From: Capsulimonadales bacterium
GTDB lineage: Bacteria > Armatimonadota > Armatimonadia > Armatimonadales > Armatimonadaceae
Direction: 5' to 3'
Assembly: GCA_033762295.1 (NCBI GenBank)
Contig: JANRLW010000009.1
Coordinates: 33,614 to 97,613, forward strand
Length of the DNA stretch: 64,000 nucleotides
The translations under genes and the position numbers were made by a program. Each line of letters opens with the position of its first letter. Position 1 is the first letter of the stretch. Under the pieces are notes generated by a model. That model was given only the letters and a program-made list of their open reading frames with translations. It was not told where the DNA came from and made no database searches. Positions 41,756 to 60,698 of the stretch are shown here, one piece after another.

Positions 41756-44700
41756 TTACTCTCGATCGTCGAAGATATCGTACGCCGCGAGGGGAGAAAG
41801 CGATTCCGTCCCGGCGTTCGGCGTCTCCGTCCCCGGAGCGTCCGGGGCAGCCGGTTCGGCAGGTTCGGCCCGCGTCTCCCCGGTCTCCACGTCCGGCATC
41901 GCTTCCGGCGTTTGCATTGCCGAGTGCGTTGCCGCCTCCGGTTCCTCGCGGACGGAATCCTCCGCGACCGGCGTTTCGGACCGAGCCTCAACGGTCTCGG
42001 TTTCCGGACCCGGTGACTCCGGTATCACGGTCGATCCGCCTTCCTCGCCGTTCGCCAGTTCGTCCTCGACGAAGATTTCACCGGTGTCCGGATCGGGCAG
42101 GGTCACGGGATTCGATTCCACCGTGATATCCGCCGAACCAAACCGCCGACCGCGTCGCGCGCCGCTTCGACGGGACCGCTGCCGTCCGCGCGCCGATTCC
42201 TCCGGCATCTCGACCTCGGTGAGGGCGTTATCCGCCAGTGGCAGGAACTCCTCCGGAATGGGCAGGGCATCGGTATCGGCCGGCAGATCGGAGAGCGGCA
42301 GGAGTTCCTCAAGCGACGGACGCACTCGCTGCCCGGCATCCGGAACCTCCTCCTCCTCGTCCTCCTCCTCGGCCTCACCGGGACCGGACCCGACCGGGGC
42401 GTCGGTCAATTCGCCGTCGCGATCCCCTTTCCCCCGGCGACGGCGACGGCGGCGACGTTTCCGACCGGCGTCTCCCGCGTCCGCAGTCACCGGAGATGCT
42501 TCCACATCGTCCGTTTCGATATCGGCCTCGTCCTCCGGGTCAGCGAACGTCTCCCCGGCCAGCGCGGCGCGAAACAGGGCGTCGTCGTCGCCCACGTACG
42601 CCGGAACGCTCGGAGCCTCCTCGAACATGGGCTGCGGCAGACCCGGCAGTTCGGCACGGGTCAGGCCCGCCGGACCGTTTCTCGGGTCGATACCGAAACG
42701 GGCAACCTCCTCCGCCGACCCGAAATACAGGAGGCGGGTGCCCCGCGGCGGCATGGATAACCGGGCGCCGAACCCATCGGCAGCCAGCGTTTCTCCGGTC
42801 AGCAGGTCCGCCAGCACGCTTTCCTGCGGCAGATAGACGGTGGTGCCCCCGCCCGGAGCCGAATGCAGACAGATCATGGAATCGCCGACCCAGGCGACAT
42901 CGTCATCGGCGGTAAAGGCGGCGACCCCGGCAAGTCGGTATAATCCCCGCAACAACGGCAGGGGAAGCGTCCTTTCTCCGATAAAAACGGACTGCCACCG
43001 AGGATGCTTCCGAACCGTCAGCGAGGGCATGCCGTTGGCGGCATACTCGCCCAGCGCCTGCGCTTTGGTATCGGCGACGTAATAGGACGGGTTGATTCGC
43101 GCCTCGTCGCCCAGCCGCTGACCGCGCAGGGCATCGATCAAGGGAGACCGGGCGCTGCTCGAAATCTGGGTTCCCATCTTGGAACCCCAGGGCTGGAGCC
43201 GGATGGCGATCCCGAGAACGTCCGTCAACTCGGACAGGTTTTCCTCCAGCGCGCCCGGCCCGTAGACCCAGGCCAGTGTCCGCCCGTTCTTCTGGAACCG
43301 TTCCCGAATCACGCTCCGGATCGCTTCCGGAATCCGGAAGGCATTGAGGAAGAGCAGCAGACGTACCGACTCGGGAAACTCCGGCTTCACCAGGTCCGAG
43401 AGGAGATAGAACCCGAGCCTTGCGCCGGAACGCAAGAGGGCATCCCGCTGACCGGTCACCAGATCGCCGAGGAGCGATTCATCGGCCCGCACATCGAAGA
43501 ACGACCGCTCATCCACAATCACCGCCACATCCGGCTCCGGGAACGGTTTTCGTGCAGGGTCACGGCGCAGGGCGGCGACGGACTCGGCGACCGATCGCAA
43601 CCGACCGATCCGCTGCCATAGTTCCCGGTCCTCGAGCCACCCCTGACCCCACAGGTCCATATAGGAGATGCCCGCTCCCCGGGTGAGAGCCGCCCCGAAG
43701 TTCCGGCTGTGTACCGCCCAGGTGCTTTCCGGGCTTTCGATTCTCGGATTGTAGGTATCCGGAGTGTCATCCGCCGACAGGTGCGTTTTGGTATCGTCCT
43801 CGGAGACCCAGAGTTTGCCCGCCAGATGGATCGAATCGAGCAGAACCGGCACCGGCGCGGAGCCACCCGGCAGACGATCGCCGTAGGACAGCGGACCGGT
43901 CAGGATATCGACAAACGGTGAACGAAGGAGCGTTCCGAGGGCAAGATGCCCGGAGGCGGATCGCGGCAACTCCAGTGTGTAACCGTAGGAAACCGCCACG
44001 GCGGACCGGTTGCCACTCGCCTCCTTGATCGCCTTGCCCAGGTTCAGGATCACACCGGCGACGACGTCGCTGGCGTATTCATGGTAATCGCGGTACCGCT
44101 GTTCACGCCGGGAAAAGAAGAGCGTCGGCCCGGAAGGCGGGGGGAAATCGGGGATCTCCGCCTGATCGAAGGTGACCGCCGTATCGAACCAGGAGGCGCG
44201 CAGGGCGACGAGGTTGTTTCGATATCGCTGACGAAGCCAGGCGCGGAACCCCTGACGGTTCGCGTCGCAAATATCGTAACCGCGCCCCTTTTCATAGAAC
44301 CATTCGCCATGTTCGAGATAGAACCCGAAAACGTTCCCGGCATAAGGCCCCTGGGCGATATGCTCCACCGCCGCCCGTAACGCCTCCTCCGCGTCACCGC
44401 TCCAGAAGGCTTCGGAGGCGATCGAAACGTCCCCGACCTCACCGTCCGCGTACCGGATCATTTCGGCGTCGTGCTGCTTGATCCACGCGGAAGTGGGCGA
44501 GAAGATCAGTCGCGGGAGGATGAACGCGCCCGGAGCGTTGTCCGCAATCAACTGAAGCGCGCTGTCCAGCGGATCGAAACGACGCTCACCGGTCCGCCCT
44601 TTCCAGGGCAGATGGGTCAGAATCGTGAACAACCGGACTCCCGCATCATAGGCGAGGCGGATCTGGCGCACGGCGACATCCGGGGACTCCGCATCCTCCG

Positions 44701-46183
44701 TGTTGACGAAAAACAGCACGGGTACCTGCGGTTCTCCGCCGATCTCCAGTTCGGGCACGTTGTTCCGGCGCACGATTTTGGTTTCCGGCAGTCGCGCCAG
44801 GGTCTCGGCGGGCAGCGGCTGATACCGGGGCGGCAACGGCTCCGGAGCGGCGACTGCGGGAACGCTCGGTACGGGAGTGACCGCCGGTCGGTTGACGGTG
44901 CGACGAAGTCCCCGGACCCGCTGTCGTGTCGGCGTCTCCCCTTCCGCTTCCGGCGCAGGGGTAGCGGCCGGAGCGACCGGCGCGGAGGTGGTCGTCGGAG
45001 GCGCGGGCGGGTCCGAACGTACGGGAAGACGACGGCGTTGTCCGCGCACTCGCTGCGGCACCGGCGTTTCGGACGCCGTTCCGGACAAAGGCGCGGCTTC
45101 CCCGGACGGCGGTACGGCCTCCGTCGGTCGGGCGGCGGTTGCCCCGCTGTCCTCGCCCTTCCGTGTTCGCGTCCGGTTGCGGCGGCGTGACCGGCTCGTT
45201 TCGCCCGTCGCCGTCGGTTCCATGGCCGGCGTCACCTCCGTTTCGGCTGTGACCTCCGGAGCGGACTCCGCGGGCGTCTCGATGGCCGGGGTTTCGTTTG
45301 CGGTCTCCGGCGTTTCGAGCACCGCTTCCGGGAGCGTCGTTTCCGCCGCACCCTCTGCGGATTCTTCAATGGCGGCTACTGGCAGGACTTCGTCGGCGGG
45401 AGCGAGATCCGTGCCTTCCTCCGGCGACGTTGCCCTCTCCGAAGACTCGACCGAAGGTAACTCGACCGAAGGTAGCTCGACCGAAGGTAACTCGACCGAC
45501 GGCTCCGGGACGGCGGAAGTCTCGGACTCCGCGACCGGGGTTCCGGCGTCCGGAATTGCCGCTTCGGCGGCGGATTCGAGCGTCACTTCAGCGGGCATCA
45601 CTTCCGCCGACGTCGCTTCCGCCGACGTCGCTACCGCGGGCAACGTTTCAGCGGGCATCGCTTCCGCGGGCATCGCTTCCGCGGGCAACGTGTCCGGAGT
45701 GGTTTTCGCCGTTCGCTTGGAGGTCCGCCGGCTTTTGGCCGGCTTTTCCGGAGTCGGCTCGGGCACAGGGTCGCCCGTCGGCGGGGCGGCCTCCGGTGTC
45801 GCCTCCGCCGGACTTTCGGCCGTCTCGGCCGTCTCGGCGGACCGGGCCGAGCGAACCGCTGTCCGGTGCCGCCGGGGCGGTGGCGTTTCGGCCGGGGCGG
45901 CGGTTTCGCCGTTCTCCGGTTCCGGGGTCGGGGCGGTCCCCGGCAACAGATTGATTCCGGGACGTCGTCCTTCCGTTCGTCGGCGACCGCCCGACGGTTT
46001 CTTTCCGGCCGGAGGCGTCGTGGTATCGGTCGCCGACGCCTCCGCCAGGTTCGTTACGGACGGGGCGTCGGTCTGCGAGTCCGGCTCAGACCCGGCAGGA
46101 GAGTTATCAAGGGAATCTTCGGGTGTGTTGGCGGAGCCATTGGCTCCATCATCAGGTGCGTCGGCATTTCGCCTGCGGCGCAT
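41756..46183 (-). CDS. GH42/beta-galactosidase-like domain protein with long disordered N- and C-terminal arms
   Basis: GAGGAG RBS; central folded region (HGEWFY, FRAWLRQRY..L...W, YGYTLE, SEDDTKT, PDVAVIVDE); P/E/A/T-rich arms with Arg clusters. Confidence 0.7.
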   Translation of the reverse strand: MRRRRNADAPDDGANGSANTPEDSLDNSPAGSEPDSQTDAPSVTNLAEASATDTTTPPAGKKPSGGRRRTEGRRPGINLLPGTAPTPEPENGETAAPAETPPPRRHRTAVRSARSAETAETAESPAEATPEAAPPTGDPVPEPTPEKPAKSRRTSKRTAKTTPDTLPAEAMPAEAMPAETLPAVATSAEATSAEVMPAEVTLESAAEAAIPDAGTPVAESETSAVPEPSVELPSVELPSVELPSVESSERATSPEEGTDLAPADEVLPVAAIEESAEGAAETTLPEAVLETPETANETPAIETPAESAPEVTAETEVTPAMEPTATGETSRSRRRNRTRTRKGEDSGATAARPTEAVPPSGEAAPLSGTASETPVPQRVRGQRRRLPVRSDPPAPPTTTSAPVAPAATPAPEAEGETPTRQRVRGLRRTVNRPAVTPVPSVPAVAAPEPLPPRYQPLPAETLARLPETKIVRRNNVPELEIGGEPQVPVLFFVNTEDAESPDVAVRQIRLAYDAGVRLFTILTHLPWKGRTGERRFDPLDSALQLIADNAPGAFILPRLIFSPTSAWIKQHDAEMIRYADGEVGDVSIASEAFWSGDAEEALRAAVEHIAQGPYAGNVFGFYLEHGEWFYEKGRGYDICDANRQGFRAWLRQRYRNNLVALRASWFDTAVTFDQAEIPDFPPPSGPTLFFSRREQRYRDYHEYASDVVAGVILNLGKAIKEASGNRSAVAVSYGYTLELPRSASGHLALGTLLRSPFVDILTGPLSYGDRLPGGSAPVPVLLDSIHLAGKLWVSEDDTKTHLSADDTPDTYNPRIESPESTWAVHSRNFGAALTRGAGISYMDLWGQGWLEDRELWQRIGRLRSVAESVAALRRDPARKPFPEPDVAVIVDERSFFDVRADESLLGDLVTGQRDALLRSGARLGFYLLSDLVKPEFPESVRLLLFLNAFRIPEAIRSVIRERFQKNGRTLAWVYGPGALEENLSELTDVLGIAIRLQPWGSKMGTQISSSARSPLIDALRGQRLGDEARINPSYYVADTKAQALGEYAANGMPSLTVRKHPRWQSVFIGERTLPLPLLRGLYRLAGVAAFTADDDVAWVGDSMICLHSAPGGGTTVYLPQESVLADLLTGETLAADGFGARLSMPPRGTRLLYFGSAEEVARFGIDPRNGPAGLTRAELPGLPQPMFEEAPSVPAYVGDDDALFRAALAGETFADPEDEADIETDDVEASPVTADAGDAGRKRRRRRRRRGKGDRDGELTDAPVGSGPGEAEEEDEEEEVPDAGQRVRPSLEELLPLSDLPADTDALPIPEEFLPLADNALTEVEMPEESARGRQRSRRSGARRGRRFGSADITVESNPVTLPDPDTGEIFVEDELANGEEGGSTVIPESPGPETETVEARSETPVAEDSVREEPEAATHSAMQTPEAMPDVETGETRAEPAEPAAPDAPGTETPNAGTESLSPLAAYDIFDDRE
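45446..45499. repeat. 15-bp coding tandem repeat (PSVEL)n
   Basis: CTCGACCGAAGGTAR x3.6. Confidence 0.85.
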
Positions 46184-46595
46184 CGGGTTACAGCTCCTCG
46201 TTCTTCGCGGTCCGCATTGCCCGAAAACACGCCGACGGGGCACCGGAAACGCACATCCTGAATAATTCCGGAGGGCAGGGTCTCAACAGTGTCGTCCGCT
46301 ATGGCAACGCTTTTCCGCAGCGTAAAATGACAAAAAGTACGTTCGGAACCTCCCGTCGACACCGGTCCGAGTTATCGGCACGGATGGTTGCGGGGGACGA
46401 GAGGATGCAGGTGCTTCTCTTTCGAAAGACGATCTGCAAGCGGAAACGTCGATCGGCCCGCCAGGCGGCCCTCGTATCCTGTTCCGCAAGCAGTATACCA
46501 CAGTCGAACTCCGGACCGGTGCCCCTTGTCACGGATTTCATTCCGCCGCGATACGTTTGCCGGTGAGAAGGTTTTGTGATATTTTTGAGAGGCGG

Positions 46596-46919
46596 GCCCA
46601 GGTGGTGAAACGGTAGACACTGGGGACTTAGAAATTGAGCCATATCGCGGGAAACCCGATATGGGATGGAGCCAAAGTCGGTGAACCCTTCCCGTCGCGC
46701 AGGCGACGAATGGCAACGCCGAGCTAAGGCCGAGAGTGTCCGATCAGAACCGGATAACTCTCGGCAAAGTGTAGAGACGAGATGGTTCCCTCCTAAACCC
46801 AAAAGACGGGCAGGGAGAAGGCATCGTCCGGACCACGAACGACAACGGCGGCGAAAGCCGAAGTGGTGCGAAAATCCCTTGCCGGCAACGGCGTGCAGGT
46901 TCGAGTCCTGTCCTGGGCA
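46596..46919 (+). tRNA. trnL: tRNA-Leu(UAA), split by a group I intron (exons 46596-46629 and 46871-46919)
   Basis: acceptor GCCCAGG/CCTGGGC-A; D arm GTGAAACGGTAGACAC; anticodon stem GGGGA/TCCCT; spliced loop CT-TAA-AA; long variable arm; GGTTCGAGTCC; CCA not encoded. Confidence 0.93.
46630..46870 (+). ncRNA. group I self-splicing intron, 241 nt, ORF-less
   Basis: 5' exon ends in U and intron ends in G; IGS-like TTGAGCC; P AAAGTCGGTGAA, Q GGCAACGCCGAGCTAA, R GTGTAGAGACGAGATGG, S GAAGGCATCGTCC resemble the trnL(UAA) intron core. Confidence 0.9.
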
Positions 46920-46945
46920 TCCGGTCTCCCCCCAATGCCGCACCG

Positions 46946-48156: not shown

Positions 48157-48172
48157 TGGCACGTATTCTGCG
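48157..48172 (+). promoter_or_regulatory. sigma54 (-24/-12) promoter of PYP block 1
   Basis: TGGCACGTATTCTGCG: GG-N10-GC, with an AT-rich tract at 48117-48140. Confidence 0.75.
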
Positions 48173-48232
48173 CGGCAACATTGGCGTTAACGTTCAGTTT
48201 TGCTGATTAGAAAGGCGGACCCTGACAATCCG

Positions 48233-48892
48233 ATGTCAGAGAACGCGTGCCGAAACACGGCAGAGACCGAAACCGGGGAACTGTCTCTGCCCGCTCTCGT
48301 TGAAAACTCCCCGGATCTCCGTGACCAATGGAACCGCTGTCTGAACGGCTATGCCGGTTCGACGCCCATCCAGCGTCAGGACCTTCTAAACTTTGTTGCT
48401 TCGTTGCGATCGGAATTCCTTCAGACCCTGGAACTGGTTACCGATCCGACCGAGCGTGAATGGCTGACATCGCTGTTTTACGCGCAGTTGAAGTGTCAGT
48501 GGACCATCGCCAACCTTCGCTCCGGATACCTCGCGGCCCGTGGGCGGATCGACTCCCGCGGCATCTGCCGGTCCGGGCTTCTGGCCGCGCTACTCGGCTG
48601 GGTGGAACCGGCCCTGTCCGAACCCATGGTCGAGGCGATCACGGACTTTCTATCACAACCGGTCCACCTGAACCGACAGGACCCCGACGAGGTCCGATTC
48701 CTTCGTGAACGCCTGGCGGTCCTCGAAAAAACCTCGGAGGAGCGTGAATCCGGCCTCCGGACGGCGTTCGGCACGACCGATATCGAACTCATCCGGGCAT
48801 CGGTCGAGGTGTCGGCGCAGACCGCGGACCTGTTGGCGGCGCTCGACCGGGGACTTGCCGACATGGAACGGTTTATCGGAAGTCCTGCCTGA
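48233..48892 (+). CDS. PYP-associated hypothetical protein, family A copy 1
   Basis: paralog of 50510..51223 (PDL..W..CL.GY, LK.QWTI.NLRSGYL.ARG.ID, CR.GLL.ALL..VE, FGT.D). Confidence 0.8.
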   Translation: MSENACRNTAETETGELSLPALVENSPDLRDQWNRCLNGYAGSTPIQRQDLLNFVASLRSEFLQTLELVTDPTEREWLTSLFYAQLKCQWTIANLRSGYLAARGRIDSRGICRSGLLAALLGWVEPALSEPMVEAITDFLSQPVHLNRQDPDEVRFLRERLAVLEKTSEERESGLRTAFGTTDIELIRASVEVSAQTADLLAALDRGLADMERFIGSPA

Positions 48893-48965
48893 TTACAGGG
48901 ACTTACCTCACTTCGGACATTCGCACACGCTTTGCTGAACCGATTAATGTTGAAAGGATGTGCTG

Positions 48966-49508
48966 ATGAATCTTTGGACCGGACTGAGAGCTTTCGCCCG
49001 GTTTCTGGGCATCGAGTTTCGACAGGTCGGAGAGGAGAACCTGGCAGCCTCCGCGCCGACCGCCCCCGAACCGACGACGGAGGGGAAAACTCTGCCTCCA
49101 CCGAACGAGCCGATCGAATGGAAACCTTTCGTCCCCTCCACCGTTCTGTCCCGACTGCCGACGATGAAACCGTCGGAACTGGATAACCTGGACTTCGGCT
49201 GCGTTCAGGTGAGCGATTCGGGAGTCGTCCGTGCCTACAACCGATGGGAGGCGGACTTCGCCGGGGTGGATCAGAAAGCGGCGATCGGACGAAACTTCTT
49301 CCGCGAACTCGCTCCCTGCACCAACAACCGACTCATCTTCGGAAGATTTAAGGAAGGAGTCGCTTCCGACCATTTGAATACGATCGTTTCCTACGCGTTC
49401 ACCTATAAAATGCGTCCGACGCTCGTCCGCGTCCATCTGTACCGTGACCCGGACACCCGGACGAACTGGGTCCTGGTGCAAAAGCACGAGGGAGTGCAGG
49501 GAAAGTAG
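48966..49508 (+). CDS. pyp: photoactive yellow protein with N-terminal extension (copy 1)
   Basis: LDNLDFG, YNRWE (Y42/E46), IGRNFFRELAPCT (C69), FKEGVAS, FTYKMRPT, VH, W; colinear with H. halophila PYP; AAAGGA RBS. Confidence 0.93.
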   Translation: MNLWTGLRAFARFLGIEFRQVGEENLAASAPTAPEPTTEGKTLPPPNEPIEWKPFVPSTVLSRLPTMKPSELDNLDFGCVQVSDSGVVRAYNRWEADFAGVDQKAAIGRNFFRELAPCTNNRLIFGRFKEGVASDHLNTIVSYAFTYKMRPTLVRVHLYRDPDTRTNWVLVQKHEGVQGK

Positions 49509-49544
49509 CAGCGAAATCGATGACAACGGAAAGGTCTTTGAATT

Positions 49545-50069
49545 ATGCATAATACGGAAACCGGTATCGAAGCGGCGGAAAACCCGCGTTCGCGTGAGTT
49601 GCGACTCCTCCTCGACGAACTCCGGGCAGCCGATGTCGAAGCGGCTCTGGCAGCCATTCGCCGACTGAAAGCGGAGGCCGAACAGGTTTCCGGCGGGCCC
49701 GATCCGGAGGCTTCGGGCAACGGTCCGACCGACGCCCGGAAGATGCTGGAAAAGTTCCGTGCGTTCTCCTCCCGGATCGACAGCCTCAACGGCACGATCG
49801 CCAGCATGGAGGAGCAGTTGCGAAACCTCTATGCCGACCGCGAACGACTCGAACAAGAGATCGGAGCGTCGGAGGTGAGCGACGTGATCGCCGCCTTCGC
49901 GCACAGCATGACCACCATCGAACTGCTCGAAGCGCAACTGGCCACCCTGTACGCCGACCGGGAGTACCTGGAAACCGAACTGGGGAAATCCGAGGCGACC
50001 GATATCGTGTCGATGTTCCGAAACGTGACGACTATGGTTCAAACGGCGCACAAGGAGCTCGTTGCCTGA
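49545..50069 (+). CDS. PYP-associated coiled-coil repeat protein, family B copy 1
   Basis: 40-aa internal repeat E.QL..LYADRE.LE.E.G.S; paralog of 51285..51938. Confidence 0.8.
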   Translation: MHNTETGIEAAENPRSRELRLLLDELRAADVEAALAAIRRLKAEAEQVSGGPDPEASGNGPTDARKMLEKFRAFSSRIDSLNGTIASMEEQLRNLYADRERLEQEIGASEVSDVIAAFAHSMTTIELLEAQLATLYADREYLETELGKSEATDIVSMFRNVTTMVQTAHKELVA

Positions 50070-50098
50070 TCGGGTCGGTAACGAAATGTCGTGGATTG

Positions 50099-50131
50099 AA
50101 CGGCGGGAGGAGGGCGAATCCTCCCGCCGTT
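50099..50131 (+). terminator. hairpin closing PYP block 1
   Basis: AACGGCGGGAGGA-loop-TCCTCCCGCCGTT; weak U tail. Confidence 0.6.
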
Positions 50132-50179
50132 CCCCTCCCCCGGCAAAATTCCGTTAAATTAAATCGATTGATAGTTGTC

Positions 50180-50195
50180 TGGCATGAATTCTGCA
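50180..50195 (+). promoter_or_regulatory. sigma54 (-24/-12) promoter of PYP block 2
   Basis: TGGCATGAATTCTGCA: GG-N10-GC; IHF-like TATCAAtcgaTTT on the minus strand at 50161-50173. Confidence 0.75.
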
Positions 50196-50509
50196 GTTAG
50201 CAAACATGCGGCGGTCACAGCGCCGCTTAGGAAGGTTCGGACGATTTCACTCGTCTTCGGATACGCAGGACTCTTTTCGAATCACCCCGGGCGAACGACG
50301 CTCGAAACCCATTCGGTATTCTACGGTTCGGGTCACAAGGACGGCCCGTCGAACCGGTTCCGTGCGGTCGCTGGCGCCCCCCTTGCGGAGGCTCGATCGC
50401 TGTTCCGTTCGCCGGAGTTTTCAATCGATAGAATTACCGTGATTCTAACAGTGTGGGTGCGATCATCGAGTCCGCCTCCCACGTTTTCCCTGAACTGAGG
50501 ATTTTTGCC

Positions 50510-51223
50510 ATGGCGACACCAGGCCTTGCCGATAACAATTCGTTCCGCTTTCTCGCCGATAACGATCCCGACCTGTCCCGCGCATGGAGCGTCTGCCTGG
50601 ACGGCTATACGGAGGGAACCTATCAGCAGCGTCAGGAGCTGCTGGACTCCGTTGCGACGTTACGGAACGAGTTCCTTCGCACCTTCTCCCTGATCACCGA
50701 TTCGATCGAGAGAAACTATGTCACTGCGCTGTTTTATGTCTACCTCAAAAGCCAGTGGACGATCCTTAACCTTCGTTCCGGTTACCTTCTGGCGCGGGGA
50801 CAGATCGATATGCGAAACATGTGCCGCTGCGGGCTCCTGTCGGCCCTCCTTGATCGTGTCGAAAGAACGCTGACGCCGACACAGGTCTTTCTCGCCACAA
50901 ACTTTCTGACCAACACCCTGACCATGAACGCCGAAGCGGACCACACCGGGAATAACCCCGCCGCCGAGGTCACCCCGTTTCGGGATTCGACGGATGGCGT
51001 CCCGGAACCCTCGCCGGAACTGCGCGCGCGTGTCCAGCAACTGGAAGCCGAACTTGCCATCGCCCGGGCGCGAGAGCAGGTCCTGGTTTCGGAATTTGGC
51101 ACGAGCGATCCCGATACCATCGTCGCCGAGTTCCGAAGCGCACGAAATGATCTGGGTCTCCTGGATGAACTGGAGACCACCCTCGGTTCGATCGAGCGTT
51201 CCATGCGGTATGTCAACGCCTGA
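50510..51223 (+). CDS. PYP-associated hypothetical protein, family A copy 2
   Basis: GAGGA RBS; paralog of 48233..48892. Confidence 0.8.
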   Translation: MATPGLADNNSFRFLADNDPDLSRAWSVCLDGYTEGTYQQRQELLDSVATLRNEFLRTFSLITDSIERNYVTALFYVYLKSQWTILNLRSGYLLARGQIDMRNMCRCGLLSALLDRVERTLTPTQVFLATNFLTNTLTMNAEADHTGNNPAAEVTPFRDSTDGVPEPSPELRARVQQLEAELAIARAREQVLVSEFGTSDPDTIVAEFRSARNDLGLLDELETTLGSIERSMRYVNA

Positions 51224-51284
51224 ACGACCGATCCCCGCATGCATGAAACCGGATGAAAACGAATAGAGAAGGAAGGCGATTACC

Positions 51285-51938
51285 ATGAGCGATACCATCG
51301 ACCAGGAATCCACCGGGCCGTCTCCGACGACGGACCCGATCAACCGTGACGATAACGACGAATACGAGCAAGTGGAAAGTGTCCACGACGAGCAAGCGAA
51401 GGAAATCGTCGAAGAGGATGAGGAAGCGGCGCTCGACCGCCTCTTTACCGAACTGAACGTGAAGGACTTTCCGTCCGCGCTGGCGGCCATTCGCCGATTG
51501 AAGGAGAAGGCCCGGCGTCCGAGCGACCCGCCCGTCGACGCCGACACCGAAGCCGCCGCCCCGGCGGAGGGTGGCGACCTCCGAAACGGCGAGGCCCGGA
51601 AGATGCTGGAAAAGTTCCGTGCGTTCTCCTCCCGGATCGACAGCCTCAACGGCACGATCGCCAGCATGGAGGAGCAGTTGCGAAACCTCTATGCCGACCG
51701 CGAACGACTCGAACGAGAGATCGGAGCGTCCGAAGTCGACGATGTCATTTCCACCTTCAGCGCACTTTACCTGACCATCATCAACCTGGAAACCCAGCTG
51801 GCTGCCCTGTACGCCGACCGGGAGTACCTCGACACCGAGCTGGGGAAATCCGATCCGATCGAAATTGTCGCTATGTTCAAGAACGTTTCCCAGATGGTCA
51901 ACGGCGCACACCGGGAGCTCCTGGCCAGCGGCGCCTAG
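51285..51938 (+). CDS. PYP-associated coiled-coil repeat protein, family B copy 2 (acidic N-terminus)
   Basis: AAGGAAGG RBS; same 40-aa repeat as copy 1. Confidence 0.82.
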   Translation: MSDTIDQESTGPSPTTDPINRDDNDEYEQVESVHDEQAKEIVEEDEEAALDRLFTELNVKDFPSALAAIRRLKEKARRPSDPPVDADTEAAAPAEGGDLRNGEARKMLEKFRAFSSRIDSLNGTIASMEEQLRNLYADRERLEREIGASEVDDVISTFSALYLTIINLETQLAALYADREYLDTELGKSDPIEIVAMFKNVSQMVNGAHRELLASGA

Positions 51939-52022
51939 ACCGACACTCGCTTCGTGGCTTGTCCTTCACGGGACCCGTCCGCGCCGCGCCGCATCGGCGG
52001 GTGGCGCTAGAAAGATCGAACC

Positions 52023-52556
52023 ATGAACCTGTTTGACCGTATCCGCGCCTTTGCGCAGTTCATTCGTACCGAGTTTACGATGGTCGACGAACAGAAAGTG
52101 TCGTCCGGACAGGCGGCGCCGGCCCGTCCGGCCCTCCCCGAATCGCTGGCGCTTAATCCGCCGAAGACCAATACCTTCGTTCCGCCCGGCTTTCTGAACC
52201 AGTTGCCGAAAATGACGCGGACGAAGATCGATTCGCTCGATTTCGGCTGCGTTCGCGTCAGCGATAACGGCATCGTCGAGATCTACAACAAATGGGAGGC
52301 GGACTTCGCCGGGGTGGATCAGAAAGCGGCGATCGGACGAAACTTCTTCCGCGAACTCGCTCCCTGCACCAACAACCGACTCATCTTCGGAAGATTCAAG
52401 GAAGGGGTCAAGCAGGACGAGCTAAATACCATAATTACTTATGCGTTCACCTACAAAATGCGTCCGACCCTCGTTCGCGTTCATCTGTACCGTGACCCGG
52501 ACACCCGGACGAACTGGGTCCTGGTGCAGAAGCATGAGTCGGCTCAGGGGAAATAG
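52023..52556 (+). CDS. pyp: photoactive yellow protein with N-terminal extension (copy 2)
   Basis: IDSLDFG, YNKWE, NFFRELAPCT, FTYKMRPT. Confidence 0.93.
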   Translation: MNLFDRIRAFAQFIRTEFTMVDEQKVSSGQAAPARPALPESLALNPPKTNTFVPPGFLNQLPKMTRTKIDSLDFGCVRVSDNGIVEIYNKWEADFAGVDQKAAIGRNFFRELAPCTNNRLIFGRFKEGVKQDELNTIITYAFTYKMRPTLVRVHLYRDPDTRTNWVLVQKHESAQGK

Positions 52557-52559
52557 ATC

Positions 52560-54092
52560 GTGAGTAACCAATCCGGAATCGTTCGGGAGCTGTCGGCCCA
52601 CCCTCGGCGCGCGGCGCTCCCGACCCAAATCGAAGACGGCGGCCCGGAAGCCGGGCCGTGGCAGGCGATGCTGTACGCACGCCTCCGCGGACGCCCGTAT
52701 CCGCTGTTCGTGTTCGAGGAGGTCATCGTTCCGGCGGCCTCCATCTGGTCCGGCGCGCGCCTCTGGCTCCATGCCTTCCGGGAGGCGGGCCTCGTTGCCG
52801 GAGATCGTATCGTGGTTGCGGTCAAACCGTCGCCCGCCTTCGTTCAGGTGCTGGTCGCCTGTCTCTGGGAAGGATATACGGTCGCCTTTGCTCCGGAAAC
52901 CGACCAGGCGCATACCATCGATGCGCTGATGACCGCTCTGGACGCCCGGTGCGCGGTCGCTCCGGTGCCGTTTGCCGCGCATGTCCTCACTCCGCAGATC
53001 TGCGAAGGACCGACCGAAGGTCCGCTGACGCTCCGTCCGTCCCGTTACCCCGCCACTCCGGAGGTGCGCTTCCTTCTGCGAACTTCCGGCAGCCGCAGTC
53101 TGAACGGTGGCCACTGGGTCGGGTTGTCGGACCGTAACCTGCTCAGCGTGCTCGACAGCCATCTTCCTCGCCTTGGCCTGGTCGAGCAGCATAGCCATGT
53201 GCTTTCGATTCTTCCCTGGCATCACGCCTTCGGTCTGATCCTGGACCTGCTTCCCGCGCTGTTCTCCGGTGCGGAAATCCTTCGGGATGCCGCCGACGGC
53301 CGCGACCCCGATACCCTGATTCGCCTGGGATCGGAGTTCCGGGTGACCCATCTCTCCGCCGTCCCGATGACATTGATGCGTCTGCGGGAACGTCCCGAAG
53401 GAGACGCGTTCCTTCGCTCCCTGGAGGGCGGGATCGTCGGCGGTGCGCCGGTGTCTCGTTCCCTCGCCGAGTTTCTGAGCGAAACCCGACTGCGTGCCGG
53501 CTATGGTCAGACGGAAGCCTCGCCGGGAATCACTCTGGGCGAACCGGGATACTGGCCCGGTCCGAACTATCTGGGTCGTCCGATCGGCTGCGCGGTCAAG
53601 ACCGACCGGGACGGTGTCCTTGCTTTCTGTGGCGAGAACGCCTGCCACGGCCTCTGGGACCCCGAACGCGGTCTCCAGGCGGTCTTCGGAACTCCGGGGG
53701 AAATCGGCACCTGGCGAACGACCGGGGATATCGTCCGACAGATGGCCGTCACCGGCGACCTTTTCTTCGTCGGTCGTTCCGATGATACGTTCAAACTGGC
53801 CAACGGACGCCGGGTGGCGGCGGGGCAGATGGAAATGCGCCTGACGCTGATTTGCGAGGGGGTCTCGGACGCGGTCCTCTTCTCTCCGGAGGGCGAAACC
53901 CTGGTCCTGCTCCGCACCGGCGCGGCCTCCGAGCCGGGGCCGTCCGAGGATTGCCTGGACAGTGTTCTGGAAGGGCTCCGCCCGCGCCTCACGGAAAACC
54001 GTTACGTCGCTCCGGAGAACTGGCCGCGTACCCGCAAAGGCACGACCGATCGACAGGAGCTGATCCGACGATTCTCCCAACACACCGAGTAG
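52560..54092 (+). CDS. pcl: AMP-dependent acyl-CoA ligase, putative p-coumarate-CoA ligase
   Basis: LRTSGS, LPWHHAFG, GGAP, GYGQTE, TGD, GRSDDTFK; lies between pyp and the ammonia lyase. Confidence 0.8.
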   Translation: MSNQSGIVRELSAHPRRAALPTQIEDGGPEAGPWQAMLYARLRGRPYPLFVFEEVIVPAASIWSGARLWLHAFREAGLVAGDRIVVAVKPSPAFVQVLVACLWEGYTVAFAPETDQAHTIDALMTALDARCAVAPVPFAAHVLTPQICEGPTEGPLTLRPSRYPATPEVRFLLRTSGSRSLNGGHWVGLSDRNLLSVLDSHLPRLGLVEQHSHVLSILPWHHAFGLILDLLPALFSGAEILRDAADGRDPDTLIRLGSEFRVTHLSAVPMTLMRLRERPEGDAFLRSLEGGIVGGAPVSRSLAEFLSETRLRAGYGQTEASPGITLGEPGYWPGPNYLGRPIGCAVKTDRDGVLAFCGENACHGLWDPERGLQAVFGTPGEIGTWRTTGDIVRQMAVTGDLFFVGRSDDTFKLANGRRVAAGQMEMRLTLICEGVSDAVLFSPEGETLVLLRTGAASEPGPSEDCLDSVLEGLRPRLTENRYVAPENWPRTRKGTTDRQELIRRFSQHTE

Positions 54093-54111
54093 ACACGGAA
54101 AGGAAAACCGC

Positions 54112-55704
54112 ATGACTCCGGAGGATACGACCCTCTCCGCGCCGTCCCCACCACCTGCGGAGACCGGCCAGGTTCTTTCCCTGGGTCCCGATGCCTTTCT
54201 TGCCTGTGAAACGGTGGAACGCGCCGCCGCCGGTCGGAACCTTCGCCTTCCGTTGACCGAAACCGCGCGCCGGAGGATGCATCTCTCCTGGGATGCCCTG
54301 CGCTGCCTGCAGGCCGGCGGCACGCCGATCTACGGGACGACTACCGGCTTCGGCCCCTTCGTCGTCTATCCGGGAGCCGGGGATCGGGAGGGCGTCTGCC
54401 AGGCGGACAGCCTGCTGGCGCATCTCGGCGCAGGCTGGAATCCTCCGGATCGCCCGGACACCCCGATCGACATCGTAAGGGCGGCAATGATCATCCGCGG
54501 ACAGAACCTGGCACAGGGACACAGCGCGATCCATCCCCGAACGCTCGAAGCCTATCTGCGATGGGCCGAATGGGATCTTACCCCGTGCGTTCCGTGGACC
54601 GGCAGTGTCGGCGCAAGCGGCGATCTGATACCTCTGGCGCATATCGCCCGGGCGGTCGCCGGGGCGGAGGATGCTCTGGTGCGCTATCGCGGCCGGACCC
54701 TGTCGGCACGCGAGGCGCTTCGCGAAACCGAACTGGCGCCGGTCCGTCTCACCGGGCGGGAAGCCCTCGCCCTTACCAACGGAACGTCGTTCCTTACCGC
54801 GTTCGCCGCGATCGGCGTCGCCCGTTCGGAACGCCTGCTTCGACGCGCCGAGGAGATCACGGGATGGCTTTATCGCCTCCTCGAAGCACGAGCCGACGCC
54901 CTGGCCGCGCCTCTTCATATCGCGCGCGGCCAGGAGGGGCAGATACTGTCCGCTCGCCACATACGAACGGAAGCGGGTCGGTACGGCGCGTGGGAGAACG
55001 CCGAGCGTCCGTTGCAGGAGGTATACAGTCTGCGCTGCGCGCCGCAAATCCTGGGCGCCTGTCGGGAGAACCTGACCTTCGCCCGGCGTCTGGTCGAAAC
55101 CGAGATCAACGGCGTTTCGGACAACCCGATTTTCTTCGGGGACGCGGACGGCTCCGGCGCACCGCAGGTCTTTCACGGCGGTAACTTCCACGGACAGCAG
55201 GTCGCCTTCGCCGCCGATGCGCTCAATGCCGCCCTGACCCAGGCCGCCGTCCTTGCCGAACGCCAGATCGACCTGCTGGTCACCCCGTCCACGGTCAACG
55301 GCAACGCCCCCCTGTTGCTGGCCTGGGACCCCGGTTCCACCAGCGGCATGGCCGGGGCGCAGATTACTGCCACGGCTCTGGTCGCCGAGATGCGCGCCGC
55401 CGCCCAGGCACATGCCACCATGAGCCTGCCGACCAACGGCCGAAACCAGGATGTGGTCTCGATGGGCGCTCTGGCGGCCCAGCGTTGTTACGAGCAGACC
55501 GACCGCCTCTCCGCCGTCCTGAGCATCCTGAGTCTTTGCGCCGCCCAGCTGACGTTCCTGCGTTCGGAGGACAAGGCGGCCGGACCGCCCGCCCCCCTCC
55601 CCCGCTGGATGACGGATTTCGAAGGCATACGACACGATCGCCCCCTGCAGGCGGCGATCGCTCGCCTGGCCGCCTTCCTTCGCGATAACGTACCGGACGA
55701 TTAG
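54112..55704 (+). CDS. tal: MIO-dependent aromatic amino acid ammonia-lyase, putative tyrosine ammonia-lyase
   Basis: IYGTTTGFGP, LLAHLGAG (His-Leu switch), GASGDL, TNGT, YSLRCAPQ, GGNFHG, NQDVVSMG. Confidence 0.88.
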   Translation: MTPEDTTLSAPSPPPAETGQVLSLGPDAFLACETVERAAAGRNLRLPLTETARRRMHLSWDALRCLQAGGTPIYGTTTGFGPFVVYPGAGDREGVCQADSLLAHLGAGWNPPDRPDTPIDIVRAAMIIRGQNLAQGHSAIHPRTLEAYLRWAEWDLTPCVPWTGSVGASGDLIPLAHIARAVAGAEDALVRYRGRTLSAREALRETELAPVRLTGREALALTNGTSFLTAFAAIGVARSERLLRRAEEITGWLYRLLEARADALAAPLHIARGQEGQILSARHIRTEAGRYGAWENAERPLQEVYSLRCAPQILGACRENLTFARRLVETEINGVSDNPIFFGDADGSGAPQVFHGGNFHGQQVAFAADALNAALTQAAVLAERQIDLLVTPSTVNGNAPLLLAWDPGSTSGMAGAQITATALVAEMRAAAQAHATMSLPTNGRNQDVVSMGALAAQRCYEQTDRLSAVLSILSLCAAQLTFLRSEDKAAGPPAPLPRWMTDFEGIRHDRPLQAAIARLAAFLRDNVPDD

Positions 55705-55811: not shown

Positions 55812-56594
55812 ATGGGAATGCTGGACGGAAAGGTCGCGCTGATCACCGGCGGGGCCAGCGGAATTGGCAAGGGAACGGCGATCCGGTTCGCTCAGGAAGG
55901 CGCGAACGTCGTGATCACGGACGTTCAGGCCGAGGAAGGCGAAGCGGCACGACGGGAGATCGAACGGGCGGGCGGCGAGGCGCAATTCGTTCTCTGCGAT
56001 GTCGCCGATGCCGAAGCGGTTCGTGCCGCCCTCGACCGAACCGTGGAGGTGTACGGGCGCCTCGATATCGTCTTCGCCAATGCGGGAATCAACGGCGTCT
56101 GGACACCGCTGGAGGAACTCCTGCCCACCGAGTGGGACAAAACTCTGGATACCAACCTGAAGGGTACGTATCTGACATTACACTACGCGATCCCGCACCT
56201 CCGGCGGGCGGGCGGCGGAAGCATCCTCATCACCAGCAGCGTGAACGGGAACCGCACCTTTTCCACGGCGGGCGCGTCGGCGTACAGCACGTCGAAAGCC
56301 GGGCAGGTCGCGCTGATGAAGATGGCGGCGCTGGAACTGGGACGTTACAACATCCGTGTCAACGCGATCTGTCCCGGAGCGATTCGAACCAACATCGGCG
56401 ATCGAACGTATGCCCGCCATACGGAAGAGGTCGAAATCAAGGTCGAGATGCCCGAAGGCGCCCCCTTTCTGAACGAAGGTCAGGGGGAACCGATCGACGT
56501 CGCCGACACCTGTCTCTTCCTCGCCAGTGACCTTTCGCGCCATGTTTCCGGGGTGGAAATCTATGTGGACGGAGGAGCGTCTCTGCTTCGCTGA
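55812..56594 (+). CDS. SDR family oxidoreductase
   Basis: TGGASGIG, ANAG, YSTSK, VNAICPG, VDGG. Confidence 0.93.
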   Translation: MGMLDGKVALITGGASGIGKGTAIRFAQEGANVVITDVQAEEGEAARREIERAGGEAQFVLCDVADAEAVRAALDRTVEVYGRLDIVFANAGINGVWTPLEELLPTEWDKTLDTNLKGTYLTLHYAIPHLRRAGGGSILITSSVNGNRTFSTAGASAYSTSKAGQVALMKMAALELGRYNIRVNAICPGAIRTNIGDRTYARHTEEVEIKVEMPEGAPFLNEGQGEPIDVADTCLFLASDLSRHVSGVEIYVDGGASLLR

Positions 56595-56720
56595 TCGCCA
56601 CGCGTCGGTCGCCGCGCAATGAAGGACCGTCAACCACGGTCCTTCCGATTTTTTGTAACGCTGAGGTAGTTTCCTTTCTCCGATATCTGTGAGATATTGT
56701 ATTGGAAAGGAAGCCACCCC

Positions 56721-57398
56721 ATGTTTCGCTTCGGCCTGATTTTTGTCTCGCTACTCCTGCTCCTATCGGTCTCCGGCTGCGGTGGGGGTAACAACAACGA
56801 TTTCCCGCTCCCCCCCTCGTTCTCGGAATCGCGTTTCCAGCCGAACTACGGCGGAGACCTCGATACGGTCAATTATTACACTCAACCGAACATTACCTAC
56901 CGCATCATGGAGTCCGATAAGGCGACGGATATCCGTTTGAACCGGATCACCGCCGTCAACGCGACCGACGCGCAGAAACAGGCGATCCGGGAAGCCATCA
57001 CCAAATGGCAGACCGCTCTCGCCGGTAACGACCCGCCCCATCAACGCACTTTTGTCGAGGTCGGCAATGACGTTCTGGCGGATATCGATTTCGTCATACA
57101 AACCCGCGATCAGTTCAGAAGCACCTTCTTTACCGAGGAGTTCGCGTATACCGAGTACTACATTCGTGATATCGACCGGCAGTTCATGGGACGCGCGGTC
57201 GTCCGACTGCGCAACGATCTGGGCGATTCGAATTTCCGGTACGTTACTCTGCATGAAACCGGTCACGCCCTGGGACTGGTCGGGCACTCGCGCCGGCTGG
57301 GAACGGTGATGTACCCCTATCAAACGCCGTTCTCGACGATTTCGGACCTGACGGACCGCGACATTAACACCATTCGCGCAACGTACACCCGCGAATAG
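56721..57398 (+). CDS. matrixin (M10)-like metallopeptidase lipoprotein
   Basis: lipobox VSGC; HETGHALGLVGH; Met-turn VMYP. Confidence 0.85.
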   Translation: MFRFGLIFVSLLLLLSVSGCGGGNNNDFPLPPSFSESRFQPNYGGDLDTVNYYTQPNITYRIMESDKATDIRLNRITAVNATDAQKQAIREAITKWQTALAGNDPPHQRTFVEVGNDVLADIDFVIQTRDQFRSTFFTEEFAYTEYYIRDIDRQFMGRAVVRLRNDLGDSNFRYVTLHETGHALGLVGHSRRLGTVMYPYQTPFSTISDLTDRDINTIRATYTRE

Positions 57399-57681: not shown

Positions 57682-57883
57682 CCGCTCCGGTCAGGCATCT
57701 CCCGGACGGAGGCCCCACCTCCGTCCGTTTTCGTTCGTCGTACCGCAGGTCCGCAAGCGCATTACGGTTCCGTGTAACCTGCGGTCGTCGCCGGTGTCAA
57801 AGCAGTTGCGAAAATCGTAATGAGACCTGCCGCGCCCTGTCCTCACAGTCCTCGCAGGTCCTCGCGGAAAAGGCATGCACACC

Positions 57884-59092
57884 ATGGCGATCGACGTACT
57901 CGAAAAACTGAATCGGCGTTTCTCGGATCTGCACGAGCGACTGTTCGGCCATATCGGCCAGCGGGAACTCCGCCCGCACGACATTTTGCGGCGAATCACC
58001 GCCGAAATGGAGGCGAGTCGGCGGAAAGGGCTGGACGGCTACCCGTACGTGCCGAACGTTTACACGCTTCAGGTCGCGGTCGGCAGCGAGGATGAACGCC
58101 AGTACCTTCGAACGTTTCTGGGTGCGGAGGAACTGGTCAACGCCGTCGCCCAGGAGATCGAGACACGCGGATACCGGGTAAAAGGCACGTTGCTGTTCAC
58201 GGTCGAGGAGGTTCCTCCGGCGGTTCTGGAACAGCGCATCCGGGTACTGTGCCGTTTCGATCCGGACGCCGCTCCGACGCCCCGCCCGGAGCCCGCCGAA
58301 GCCCCTTTTTCCCCGCGCCCCGCTCCCCCGACTCCCGCCCCTTCCCCGATCCTTGCCGAAACGGGTGACCCGGAAGACGAGGAGGAACCCGGCACGATCG
58401 CCGCCATCACGCCCGCCGTCGCTCTTCTGGAAGTGACCGGCGCCGGCGGTTCCAGGACCGTCGCCCCCGTGACGCTGGCCGGCGTACGGATCGGCCGTAG
58501 CAAACGCGCCGGCAACGATGTCATTATCGAGAACGATCCGCAGGTTTCCAAGCGCCACGCCCGCATCGCTTACGAACAGGGACGTTTCGTTCTGTACGAT
58601 GAGGGTTCGACCAACGGAACCACCCTTCGGGACGTTCGCATCCCGGTCAACCAGCCGACGCCGCTCCCGTTCGGGGAAGCGTTTCGGATCGGCGACTGCG
58701 TCCTGGTTCTTCGCCAGAAGACCTCGGCTCCCACGCCTCCCACCGCCCCACCCGCTTACCCGGCGTCCCCGGCCGCTTCCACGACGGAACCGTCGGGAAA
58801 CGCGATCATCTATCGTCTGGTGGCCGGAGATGGCACCGTACATACCCTTGCCTCCGAGATGACGGTCGGACGCGGAGTGACCGAGGATATCGTTCTGCAC
58901 GGGAACGGCGTTTCCTCGCGGCACGCCCGACTCTCCCTGCGCGGCGTCGCCCTCTATGTCGAAGACCTCAATACTCCCGGGGGAACCTTTGTCAACGGCG
59001 AGAGAATTCCGGCGAATTTTCCGGTTGCGCTTTATAATGAGGATCAGGTCAGGTTCGGCGAGGTGCTGCTCCGGGTGGAACGCAGCCGGTAG
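57884..59092 (+). CDS. FhaA-like protein (DUF3662 + two FHA domains)
   Basis: YVPNVYTL; IGR...VSKRHA..GSTNGT; VGR...VSSRHA..GGTFVNG. Confidence 0.88.
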   Translation: MAIDVLEKLNRRFSDLHERLFGHIGQRELRPHDILRRITAEMEASRRKGLDGYPYVPNVYTLQVAVGSEDERQYLRTFLGAEELVNAVAQEIETRGYRVKGTLLFTVEEVPPAVLEQRIRVLCRFDPDAAPTPRPEPAEAPFSPRPAPPTPAPSPILAETGDPEDEEEPGTIAAITPAVALLEVTGAGGSRTVAPVTLAGVRIGRSKRAGNDVIIENDPQVSKRHARIAYEQGRFVLYDEGSTNGTTLRDVRIPVNQPTPLPFGEAFRIGDCVLVLRQKTSAPTPPTAPPAYPASPAASTTEPSGNAIIYRLVAGDGTVHTLASEMTVGRGVTEDIVLHGNGVSSRHARLSLRGVALYVEDLNTPGGTFVNGERIPANFPVALYNEDQVRFGEVLLRVERSR

Positions 59093-59167
59093 CCGGAGGA
59101 ACTGACGGGAACCTTCCGTTCCCTACGTCCCATCCAGTCCAATCTCGGAGAGAGTCCGGACTCCGTT

Positions 59168-60697: not shown

Positions 60698-60698
60698 T

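Follow-up and report, generated by a model that had tools for sequence, protein, structure and literature searches.

Photoactive yellow protein (PYP) is among the most studied photoreceptors. Here we analyze a locus with two pyp genes in a 64,000-nucleotide stretch of DNA (the window) from a Capsulimonadales bacterium (assembly GCA_033762295.1, contig JANRLW010000009.1, positions 33,614 to 97,613). Around the pyp genes stand members of two protein families, which we call A and B, together with genes for a probable ligase and a probable lyase of the PYP chromophore pathway. We think it likely that a conserved cassette for sensing blue light is present here twice, in tandem copies that have diverged, and that its A, B, and PYP work as one signaling complex.

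The abstract of Dohmen et al. (2025, PMC12826048) calls the downstream chain of PYP "an important gap in knowledge". The Halorhodospira halophila pyp-pcl-tal operon in that paper resembles the locus described here in having a PYP, a CoA ligase, and an enzyme of the tyrosine ammonia-lyase (TAL) type on one strand, and residues Y42, E46, and C69 in the PYP. It differs from it in that here A and B precede or flank pyp, and the sensor part is duplicated. Dohmen et al. analyzed 113 pyp operons, tabulating only the partners with Pfam names; the available main text never uses the words "hypothetical", "unknown function", or "coiled". The available supplement does hold unclassified hypotheticals in pyp operons, for instance a 134-amino-acid (aa) protein beside the L. 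biflexa PYP.

According to the available text of a preprint on the Rhodobacter capsulatus PYP (Rc-PYP), the only biochemically supported PYP partner is PBP (RCAP_rcc01067, 142 aa), encoded next to pyp and proposed as a direct, light-switched partner (10.1101/2021.06.01.446672). In size PBP is like A, whose stand-alone domain proteins have about 135-148 aa. In predicted secondary-structure class they differ: PBP is predicted to combine N-terminal helices with beta-sheets, and for A and B the prediction is helices throughout.

Xing, Gumerov, and Zhulin (2022, PMC9664959) place the PYP of Armatimonas rosea in their clade B, and describe sensor-less methyl-accepting chemotaxis proteins (MCPs, or chemoreceptors) that adjoin Leptospira PYPs. 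In our loci, too, an MCP stands beside the cassette in Leptospira (L036, L038), and a link to chemotaxis fits the fusions of A with CheA described below. The MCP is the only partner discussed in the available text of that paper, whereas the genome studied here has no match to MCP or CheW. In the Armatimonas rosea row of their Data Set S3, two genes between the secretin and the PYP are given as "None"; in L013, a locus with a gene order like that row, A and B occupy those two positions. In the available tables the neighborhood surveys counted only genes with Pfam names, and A and B appear in them as "None" or "hypothetical". Neither the A domain nor the B repeat turned out to be described in the available texts of Xing et al. 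2022, Dohmen et al. 2025, or the Rc-PYP/PBP preprint; subscription papers (e.g., Meyer et al. 2012) were outside this search.

Two tandem copies of one cassette

The list of open reading frames (ORFs) has eight ORFs between 48200 and 55704, all on the + strand, in the order A1-pyp1-B1-A2-B2-pyp2-ligase-lyase.

48200-48892, + strand: A1, 230 aa; starts at a TTG, and an ATG follows in frame at 48233
48960-49508, + strand: pyp1, 182 aa; TIGR02373 E 5e-32
49545-50069, + strand: B1, 174 aa; coiled coil with B-type repeats, member P0006 of the B family
50453-51223, + strand: A2, 256 aa; probable start at ATG 50510, the database copy P0001 having 237 aa
51285-51938, + strand: B2, 217 aa; coiled coil
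52023-52556, + strand: pyp2, 177 aa; TIGR02373 E 5e-31
52560-54092, + strand: AMP-forming acyl-CoA ligase, probable p-coumarate-CoA ligase (pCL), 510 aa; Pfam AMP-binding
54112-55704, + strand: aromatic amino-acid ammonia-lyase, probable TAL, 530 aa; Pfam Lyase_aromatic

This is the gene order and strand given by the original prediction, a reading made from the sequence alone. Its coordinates also hold overall, except for the left edge at 48157, which precedes the first possible start codon by 43 nt. The Armatimonadota origin that it took to be probable agrees with the relatives found at the phylum level and with the source names of the matches.

The two copies are clearly related at the protein level. 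By BLASTP, A1 and A2 have 41% identity (E 2e-47), B1 and B2 64% (E 4e-66), and pyp1 and pyp2 65% (E 2e-88). In an IQ-TREE tree of 37 PYPs, pyp1 and pyp2 are sisters with support 97/86, and in FastTree trees A1 and A2 are sisters at 97 and B1 and B2 at 90. That all three pairs are sisters among their relatives agrees with the earlier proposal that A and B were duplicated together with pyp, and shows a duplication of the whole cassette within this lineage, after its split from the nearest sampled relative (L007), with later divergence of the copies to 41-65% identity. The order of copy 1, A-pyp-B, is unusual, every other Armatimonadota cassette seen being A-B-pyp. A search of the 132 contigs of the host genome (94.5% complete) found A, B, and PYP in no further copy. 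Armatimonadota, Verrucomicrobiota, Planctomycetota, and Spirochaetota are interleaved in the PYP tree, and because the tree mixes phyla in this way, the cassette looks horizontally mobile.

The PYPs and their plausible chromophore pathway

Residues 61-174 of pyp1 align without gaps to residues 10-123 of the H. halophila PYP chains among the PDB sequences (E 3e-28). In this alignment, Y93 is the equivalent of Y42, E97 of E46, C120 of C69, F147 of F96, Y149 of Y98, and M151 of M100, and the departures from the classical PYP are T50, replaced by A101, and R52, replaced by V103. When pyp1 and pyp2 are aligned, pyp2 carries the same key residues, including the APCTNN stretch around C69; the retention of Y42, E46, and C69 in both PYPs, as first noted from the sequence, is thus borne out.

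Against the TIGR02373 (photo_yellow) profile, pyp1 scores 110.5 bits and pyp2 107.5 bits, with an equivalog cutoff of 143.05. The cassette-linked PYPs with scores at hand are all below this cutoff (the highest has 134 bits), and an unlinked second PYP in one Phycisphaerae genome is above it, with 172 bits. Our reading is that the low scores mark a distinct PYP subfamily, and not an exclusion from the PYP family. Both PYPs also have an N-terminal extension of about 55 residues, with a conserved amphipathic start (MNLW.../MNLF...) followed by a Pro/Ala-rich linker, which is present as well in three related PYPs (L007, L012, L013). This extension, the scores below the cutoff, and the T50A and R52V replacements are what distinguish the PYPs here from that of H. 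halophila. Both are probably of the Leptospira/Salinibacter type, the "clade B" of the available text of Xing et al. 2022 (PMC9664959).

A different set of replacements is seen in one group of Planctomycetota cassette PYPs (L028, L031, L033, L049, L056, L059:5508-5945), which have Val for Tyr42 and Gln for Glu46 (...MVNRYQSDLG...) and keep Cys69, possibly a spectral variant.

The ligase gene starts 3 nt past pyp2, and its product matches Pfam AMP-binding (E 8e-26). The lyase matches Pfam Lyase_aromatic (E 2e-124), and has the Ala-Ser-Gly triad that forms the 4-methylideneimidazol-5-one (MIO) group in the stretch GSVGASGDL. Its best solved relatives, at E of about 1e-67, are the tyrosine aminomutase 2ohy and 2o6y, an entry deposited as a putative histidine ammonia-lyase which we take to be the R. 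sphaeroides TAL. The His of the lyase motif LLAHLGAG aligns with the His of VRSH-SAG in 2ohy, and presumably occupies the tyrosine-selectivity position (His89 of R. sphaeroides TAL, His93 of SgTAM). A complete chromophore pathway beside pyp2 is plausible. The earlier idea of a self-sufficient PYP module is in this sense supported at the level of sequence, with pyp, an AMP-forming ligase, and a lyase that carries both the triad and the selectivity-position His.

Some Armatimonadota have the ligase and the ammonia-lyase fused in one protein of about 1000 aa. The 1029-aa fusion at L019:10693-13782 matches Pfam AMP-binding at residues 112-374 and Lyase_aromatic at 535-970, and single open frames with both parts are also found in L013, L020, and L021. 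With such a fusion, a single bifunctional enzyme would catalyze both the synthesis and the activation of the chromophore.

Two apparently undescribed families

The conserved part of family A is an N-terminal domain of about 135 residues, the A domain, with near-invariant columns W16, W73, N77, and E108 in an alignment of 19 sequences; these columns hold across phyla. The AlphaFold2 model of the A2 domain has six helices and a predicted local distance difference test score (pLDDT) of 91. In A1 the six-helix domain (about residues 29-164) is followed by a C-terminal coiled coil with one B-type repeat, and A2 (domain at residues 30-165 of the long form) has the same layout.

None of the searches identified the A domain as a known one. 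A1 and A2 matched no family in Pfam or NCBIfam, the best match of the A-domain profile among PDB sequences has an E-value of 1, and a Foldseek search of the domain model against the PDB gave a best E of 1.2, with nothing at E ≤ 0.001. A VIA structural search with the A domain had as its best match the C-terminal bundle of HscB (Z 8.9), which is inside the noise of helical proteins. From these results the A domain appears to be a previously undescribed domain family. Its profile finds 362 representative clusters at E ≤ 1e-3 out of 1.84 billion, 260 of them at E ≤ 1e-10. Among the 149 best representatives, 70 are stand-alone proteins (up to 160 aa) and two have tandem A domains.

Two identities for A were considered and set aside. 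That A is a diverged Hpt domain is unlikely, given that the alignments have no invariant His, that Hpt and A coexist in the proteins P0166 and P0169, and that no Hpt is found among the 50 VIA matches shown. Neither are A1 and A2 themselves CheA histidine kinases, as Hpt, dimerization, HATPase_c, and CheW-like domains were not found in them with Pfam and NCBIfam; unlike CheA kinases, they consist of the A domain and then a coiled coil, with no kinase, Hpt, or CheW part.

Family B is a coiled coil made of a repeat of about 45 residues, roughly LYxxRExLExEIGxSxxxxIxxF, or in a longer consensus S-M-E-x-Q-L-x-x-L-Y-x-x-R-E-x-L-E-x-E-I-G-x-S-x-x-x-x-I-x-x-x-F. A word search collects 34 proteins of the family, most of them labeled Armatimonadota. 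B2 has an acidic disordered N-terminus, then one degenerate and two full B-type repeats. Its AlphaFold2 model (pLDDT 78.6, predicted template modeling score 0.30) has helices at 24-57, 62-77, 100-146, 148-186, and 191-216, the long ones kinked at the G-x-S motifs. Against Pfam, B gives only sub-threshold coiled-coil matches, and the search for look-alikes of B in the Atlas had no usable feature match, with the structural rows under the bar. The B repeat, too, would be an undescribed family.

A, B, and PYP occur together

In an even draw of 401 Armatimonadota genomes, the B profile is found in 13 genomes and the A profile in 10, and TIGR02373 in 19 at E ≤ 1e-5 and in 14 at E ≤ 1e-10; the five weakest TIGR02373 matches are parts of open frames 887-1131 aa long and probably represent ordinary PAS domains. 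B and PYP are present in all 10 genomes with A, as consecutive A-B-PYP genes on one strand, usually with ligase and lyase next. In three genomes with PYP from a different Armatimonadota family (L019-L021), A and B are below the first thresholds, and at these loci a weak B-like gene stands 5′ of pyp and A-domain genes stand 3′ of it (two each for L019 and L020, and one detected for L021). Two weak B matches come from Armatimonadota without PYP, and for one of them (L026) the contig stops directly after B. One Armatimonadota genus has paralogs of A with B-like repeats away from PYP (L022-L025).

A second sample was chosen by A alone, regardless of PYP, with a degenerate DNA pattern for the A motif YIELK..W...NT...Y. 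The resulting 33 loci come from at least five phyla and include Phycisphaerae, Planctomycetaceae, Isosphaeraceae, Tepidisphaerales, Leptospira, Leptonemataceae, Kapaibacteria/Ignavibacteria, Rhodothermaceae, Spartobacteria, and Chthonomonadales. The pattern finds only the stand-alone type of A, so that this is a biased sample, in which two loci repeat contigs already in the analysis. There is a PYP within 8 kb of A in 24 of the 33 loci, and all 24 have a B-like ORF. A ligase is present in 22/33 and a lyase in 18/33. Of the 4149 ORFs searched in these loci, 30 match the B profile, all of them within 1.5 kb of A or PYP; outside the cassettes there are none.

What about the nine loci without a nearby PYP? 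Two are at contig edges (L030, L055), in four A precedes an S41 peptidase (L034, L037, L047, L051), and the rest are a Leptospira locus with A, B, and an MCP (L036), an A–CheA fusion (L041), and an A-ligase-lyase arrangement (L058). The whole genomes behind five of the nine were searched, and four of them have a PYP elsewhere (E 1e-35 to 1e-39). The four loci with the peptidase, all from Kapaibacteria/Ignavibacteria, look alike: in each of them the stand-alone A gene is followed not by pyp but by genes for a PDZ-containing, CtpB-like S41 peptidase and a beta-CASP RNase. A PYP is found elsewhere in three of these four genomes.

Linkage is not required for the association. In 101 Leptospiraceae genomes, 36 have both A and PYP, one has A only, seven have PYP only, and 57 have neither, and in 20 of the 36 the A gene and the PYP found are on different contigs. 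In 121 Phycisphaerae genomes, A is found in two and PYP in two, and they are the same two. We give no co-occurrence statistic, because related genomes are not independent. The association of A with PYP is seen in three phyla and extends to unlinked genes. A, the B repeat, and PYP belong together, either as neighbors or in the same genome, in Armatimonadota, Planctomycetota, Spirochaetota, Verrucomicrobiota, and lineages related to Bacteroidota.

Nine Leptospiraceae genomes (G418, G420, G423, G431, G437, G443, G448, G452, G456) have a second, more diverged small A-domain gene adjoining pyp, the open frames being 136-160 aa long (E 1e-12 to 1e-14). This gene may correspond to the unclassified 134-aa hypothetical beside the L. 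biflexa PYP in the available supplement of Dohmen et al. (PMC12826048).

Natural fusions and the link to CheA

Three kinds of natural fusion connect the parts. A 509-aa protein of one Armatimonadota genome (L018:7700-9229) joins three B repeats to a C-terminal PYP. B-like repeats share a chain with the A domain in 39 of the 149 representatives. Lastly, a CheA-like makeup is seen in 12 of the 13 A-domain representatives that exceed 480 aa. In nine of these 12 the A domain comes first, then domains of the P3/P4/P5 type (H-kinase_dim, HATPase_c, CheW), and in the other three an Hpt-HATPase(-CheW) core precedes a C-terminal A domain. Six of the nine A-first proteins have no HATPase_c match at E ≤ 0.001, and may be pseudokinase adaptors. 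The second A gene after pyp in L019 and L020 is colinear with an A–CheA fusion over the A domain and the next 180 or so residues, and is too diverged for Pfam.

The original prediction had regarded A and B as two uncharacterized families at this locus, and as the best candidates for partners of PYP. Their tie to pyp stands, but they are not a local oddity, being parts of a cassette conserved in at least five phyla. As candidate partners they are strongly supported both by the natural fusions and by the co-occurrence, which was to be checked with profiles of A, B, and PYP: PYP accompanies A in nearly all sampled genomes that have A (10/10 in Armatimonadota, 36/37 in Leptospiraceae, 2/2 in Phycisphaerae).

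A predicted complex and a possible mechanism

A structural check of the PYP:A:B complex by AlphaFold-type modeling had also been proposed. We made a single three-chain prediction with the A domain, residues 100-217 of B2, and pyp2, each with its alignment, scoring PYP as the partner. The complex score is 0.46 (0.47, 0.42, and 0.46 in the runs), and the best of three controls has 0.01. The runs share at least 43% of their contacts, and the pLDDT of the partner is at least 70. The pass mark is reached by 116 of 157 solved complexes and by two of 215 mismatched pairs, and in the range of scores up to 0.60 the passes are 18 of the 157 solved complexes and both of the mismatches. The prediction is thus weak support for a complex. 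With an unrelated protein in place of the A domain the score drops to 0.01, and that drop hints that the predicted contact is with the A domain.

Taking these results together, we can propose how such a cassette might work. The ligase and lyase of copy 2 would make p-coumaric acid and attach it to PYP. PYP would assemble with A and B into one signaling complex, and PYP activated by light would alter its contact with the A domain. The B-type coiled coils would hold the complex together and pass the change onward. In other lineages, the CheA-fused forms of A would let the signal enter the chemotaxis pathway, and in this genome the enlarged coiled coils of A and B would address a target other than chemotaxis.

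A bolder version, which we put forward tentatively and would not ourselves expect to hold in full, is that A/B/PYP is a widespread and overlooked relay of the clade-B-type PYPs. A would be a light-switched dock for PYP and B the transmitter, and the relay would be plugged into CheA for phototaxis or, in Armatimonadaceae-like bacteria, into a chemotaxis-independent target (perhaps type IV pili). If true, this relay would be the missing first step of PYP signaling. What is new here is two small soluble families that follow PYP across phyla, whether or not the genes are linked; natural fusions join them to PYP, to one another, and to CheA. The question of the PYP partner is thereby reduced to simple binding and knockout experiments, and optogenetics may gain a new light-switchable protein pair.

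Output of the cassette in this genome

Other lineages have the A domain as a part of CheA-type kinases, and so the output there would be the chemotaxis pathway. In this genome, searches for CheW, the MCP signaling domain, and flagellin had no match, with matches in the control genomes. CheW was also not found in any of five genomes of the same family that carry the cassette, and it was found in all five cassette carriers from three other families. From its absence here and in the five family relatives we conclude that, as far as gene content tells, the output in this genome is not chemotaxis. In the Armatimonadaceae-type carriers without chemotaxis, A and B are long forms with extended coiled coils. 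The proposal of a non-canonical output thus applies to this genome, which has no CheW, MCP, or flagellin match, but not to other lineages, where the A domain is found inside CheA-type kinases.

Could the target here be the type IV pilus machinery? This can be no more than a guess, whose sole ground is the presence of pilus genes beside the cassette in two loci. The genome has nine T2SSE-type ATPases. Conserved flanking genes were tried as a clue to the output and gave none, since the flanks of eight Armatimonadota cassettes share nothing.

Individual cassettes do have suggestive neighbors, which are a PAS-GGDEF-EAL protein (L017:13357-15990), an ankyrin protein with PilB/PilC-type proteins (L015:4071-8546), and a secretin (L013:4316-7030). 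These are possible local outputs; none is conserved, and they are too few to build on.

At 57875-62555 (+ strand) of the window genes for an FhaA-like FHA protein, a PP2C phosphatase, and a Ser/Thr kinase (60699-62555) form a cluster, the kinase being 5 kb downstream of the cassette. We set this cluster aside as the output, since a terminator-like site separates it from the cassette and nothing like it stands beside other cassettes. It does qualify the earlier statement that no kinase or MCP output is encoded: there is indeed no MCP match in the genome and no kinase in the cassette, but there is this Ser/Thr kinase 5 kb downstream, for which we found no link to the cassette.

Weighing the explanations

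Several observations weigh against two copies of a blue-light cassette whose A, B, and PYP form one signaling complex. Light sensing by both PYPs, attachment of the chromophore, and binding of A and B are predictions from sequences and a model, and the complex prediction is a weak pass that comes without a reported interface. The searches turned up no target for the output of the cassette in this genome, and the Foldseek and VIA searches with the A-domain fold yielded no clue to function. B is mostly coiled coil, and matches of the B-repeat profile inside long A proteins may be partly generic. Because T50 and R52 are replaced, the spectral behavior may differ. The association has exceptions, with A but no PYP in one of the five whole genomes behind the PYP-less loci, and in Leptospiraceae seven genomes having PYP without a detectable A and one having A without PYP. 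Finally, the genomes in which the genes co-occur are related, and with a cassette that seems to move horizontally, part of the co-occurrence may be co-transfer.

Could A and B be there for making the photoreceptor, and not for what comes after it? As factors of PYP assembly or maturation, they might, for instance, keep apo-PYP ready for the ligase to load the chromophore, or stabilize and localize holo-PYP, and would carry no signal. The cassette does usually include the ligase (22/33 loci) and the lyase (18/33), A sits between chromophore genes in L044 (PYP-lyase-A-ligase) and in L048 (PYP-ligase-A-lyase), and the clade-B PYPs might need a factor that operons of the H. halophila type do without. 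The fusion of A to CheA-type cores, at either end, in 12 representatives points instead to signaling; the B repeats fused to PYP in L018 look like an oligomerizing or transmitting module, and in 20 of the 36 Leptospiraceae genomes A is on another contig than the PYP found. We consider a pure maturation role unlikely. We hold it very improbable that A and B are generic coiled-coil or structural proteins, carried as passengers of a mobile cassette, with a link to PYP that reflects shared inheritance. Interleaved phyla in the PYP tree do suggest transfer of whole cassettes, and the flanking genes are not conserved. Yet the trio is kept while its order varies (A-B-PYP, B-PYP-A, PYP-ligase-A), the co-occurrence at the genome level persists for unlinked genes, three kinds of domain fusion join the parts, and the A columns W16, W73, N77, and E108 are conserved between phyla.

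The explanation to which we give the least credence is that these PYP homologs are not light sensors at all, so that the cassette, with no chromophore or with another ligand, senses something else. The TIGR02373 scores of 110 and 107 bits against a cutoff of 143 would fit, as would the replacement of T50 and R52, and the substrate specificity of the ligase and lyase is assigned from sequence. Still, Y42, E46, C69, F96, Y98, and M100 are all retained, and pyp2 is followed after 3 nt by the ligase and then by a lyase with the ASG triad and the His at the selectivity position. We therefore keep to the duplicated blue-light cassette with a joint A, B, and PYP complex as the likely explanation.

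Transcription units and neighboring features

Three further features of the window bear on the layout of the cassette.

50099-50131, + strand: hairpin just 3′ of B1, a perfect 13-bp stem with a 7-nt loop and no T-run; read directly from the sequence
55812-56594, + strand: short-chain dehydrogenase; Pfam adh_short_C2 E 6e-60
56621-56645, + strand: terminator-like hairpin after the dehydrogenase; 10 pairs, then a T-run

The hairpin 3′ of B1 is followed by a gene-free stretch of 375 nt. It probably marks the end of a first transcription unit, and from the hairpin and the gene-free stretch it follows that copies 1 and 2 are probably separate transcription units. Since the terminator scan requires a T-run, this hairpin falls outside its calls. 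Promoter and terminator scans of the window gave no signal above that of shuffled sequences, and a scan of the window for Rfam families and tRNAs found none. The dehydrogenase gene is on the same strand as the lyase gene, 107 nt after it, and may close the second transcription unit; in the cassette loci of the relatives no conserved counterpart is seen.

Upstream of the cassette, on the - strand (41756-46243), there is a 1495-aa ORF with long low-complexity ends rich in Pro, Glu, Ala, and Thr, and a central region with no Pfam match at E ≤ 1e-4. The roughly 700 nt that separate it from a GT2 glycosyltransferase gene (46244-46945) hold no convincing gene, and no Rfam or tRNA match. Directly past the terminator-like site (56697-57398, + strand) stands the gene of a matrixin-type (M10) metallopeptidase with a lipoprotein-like N-terminus.

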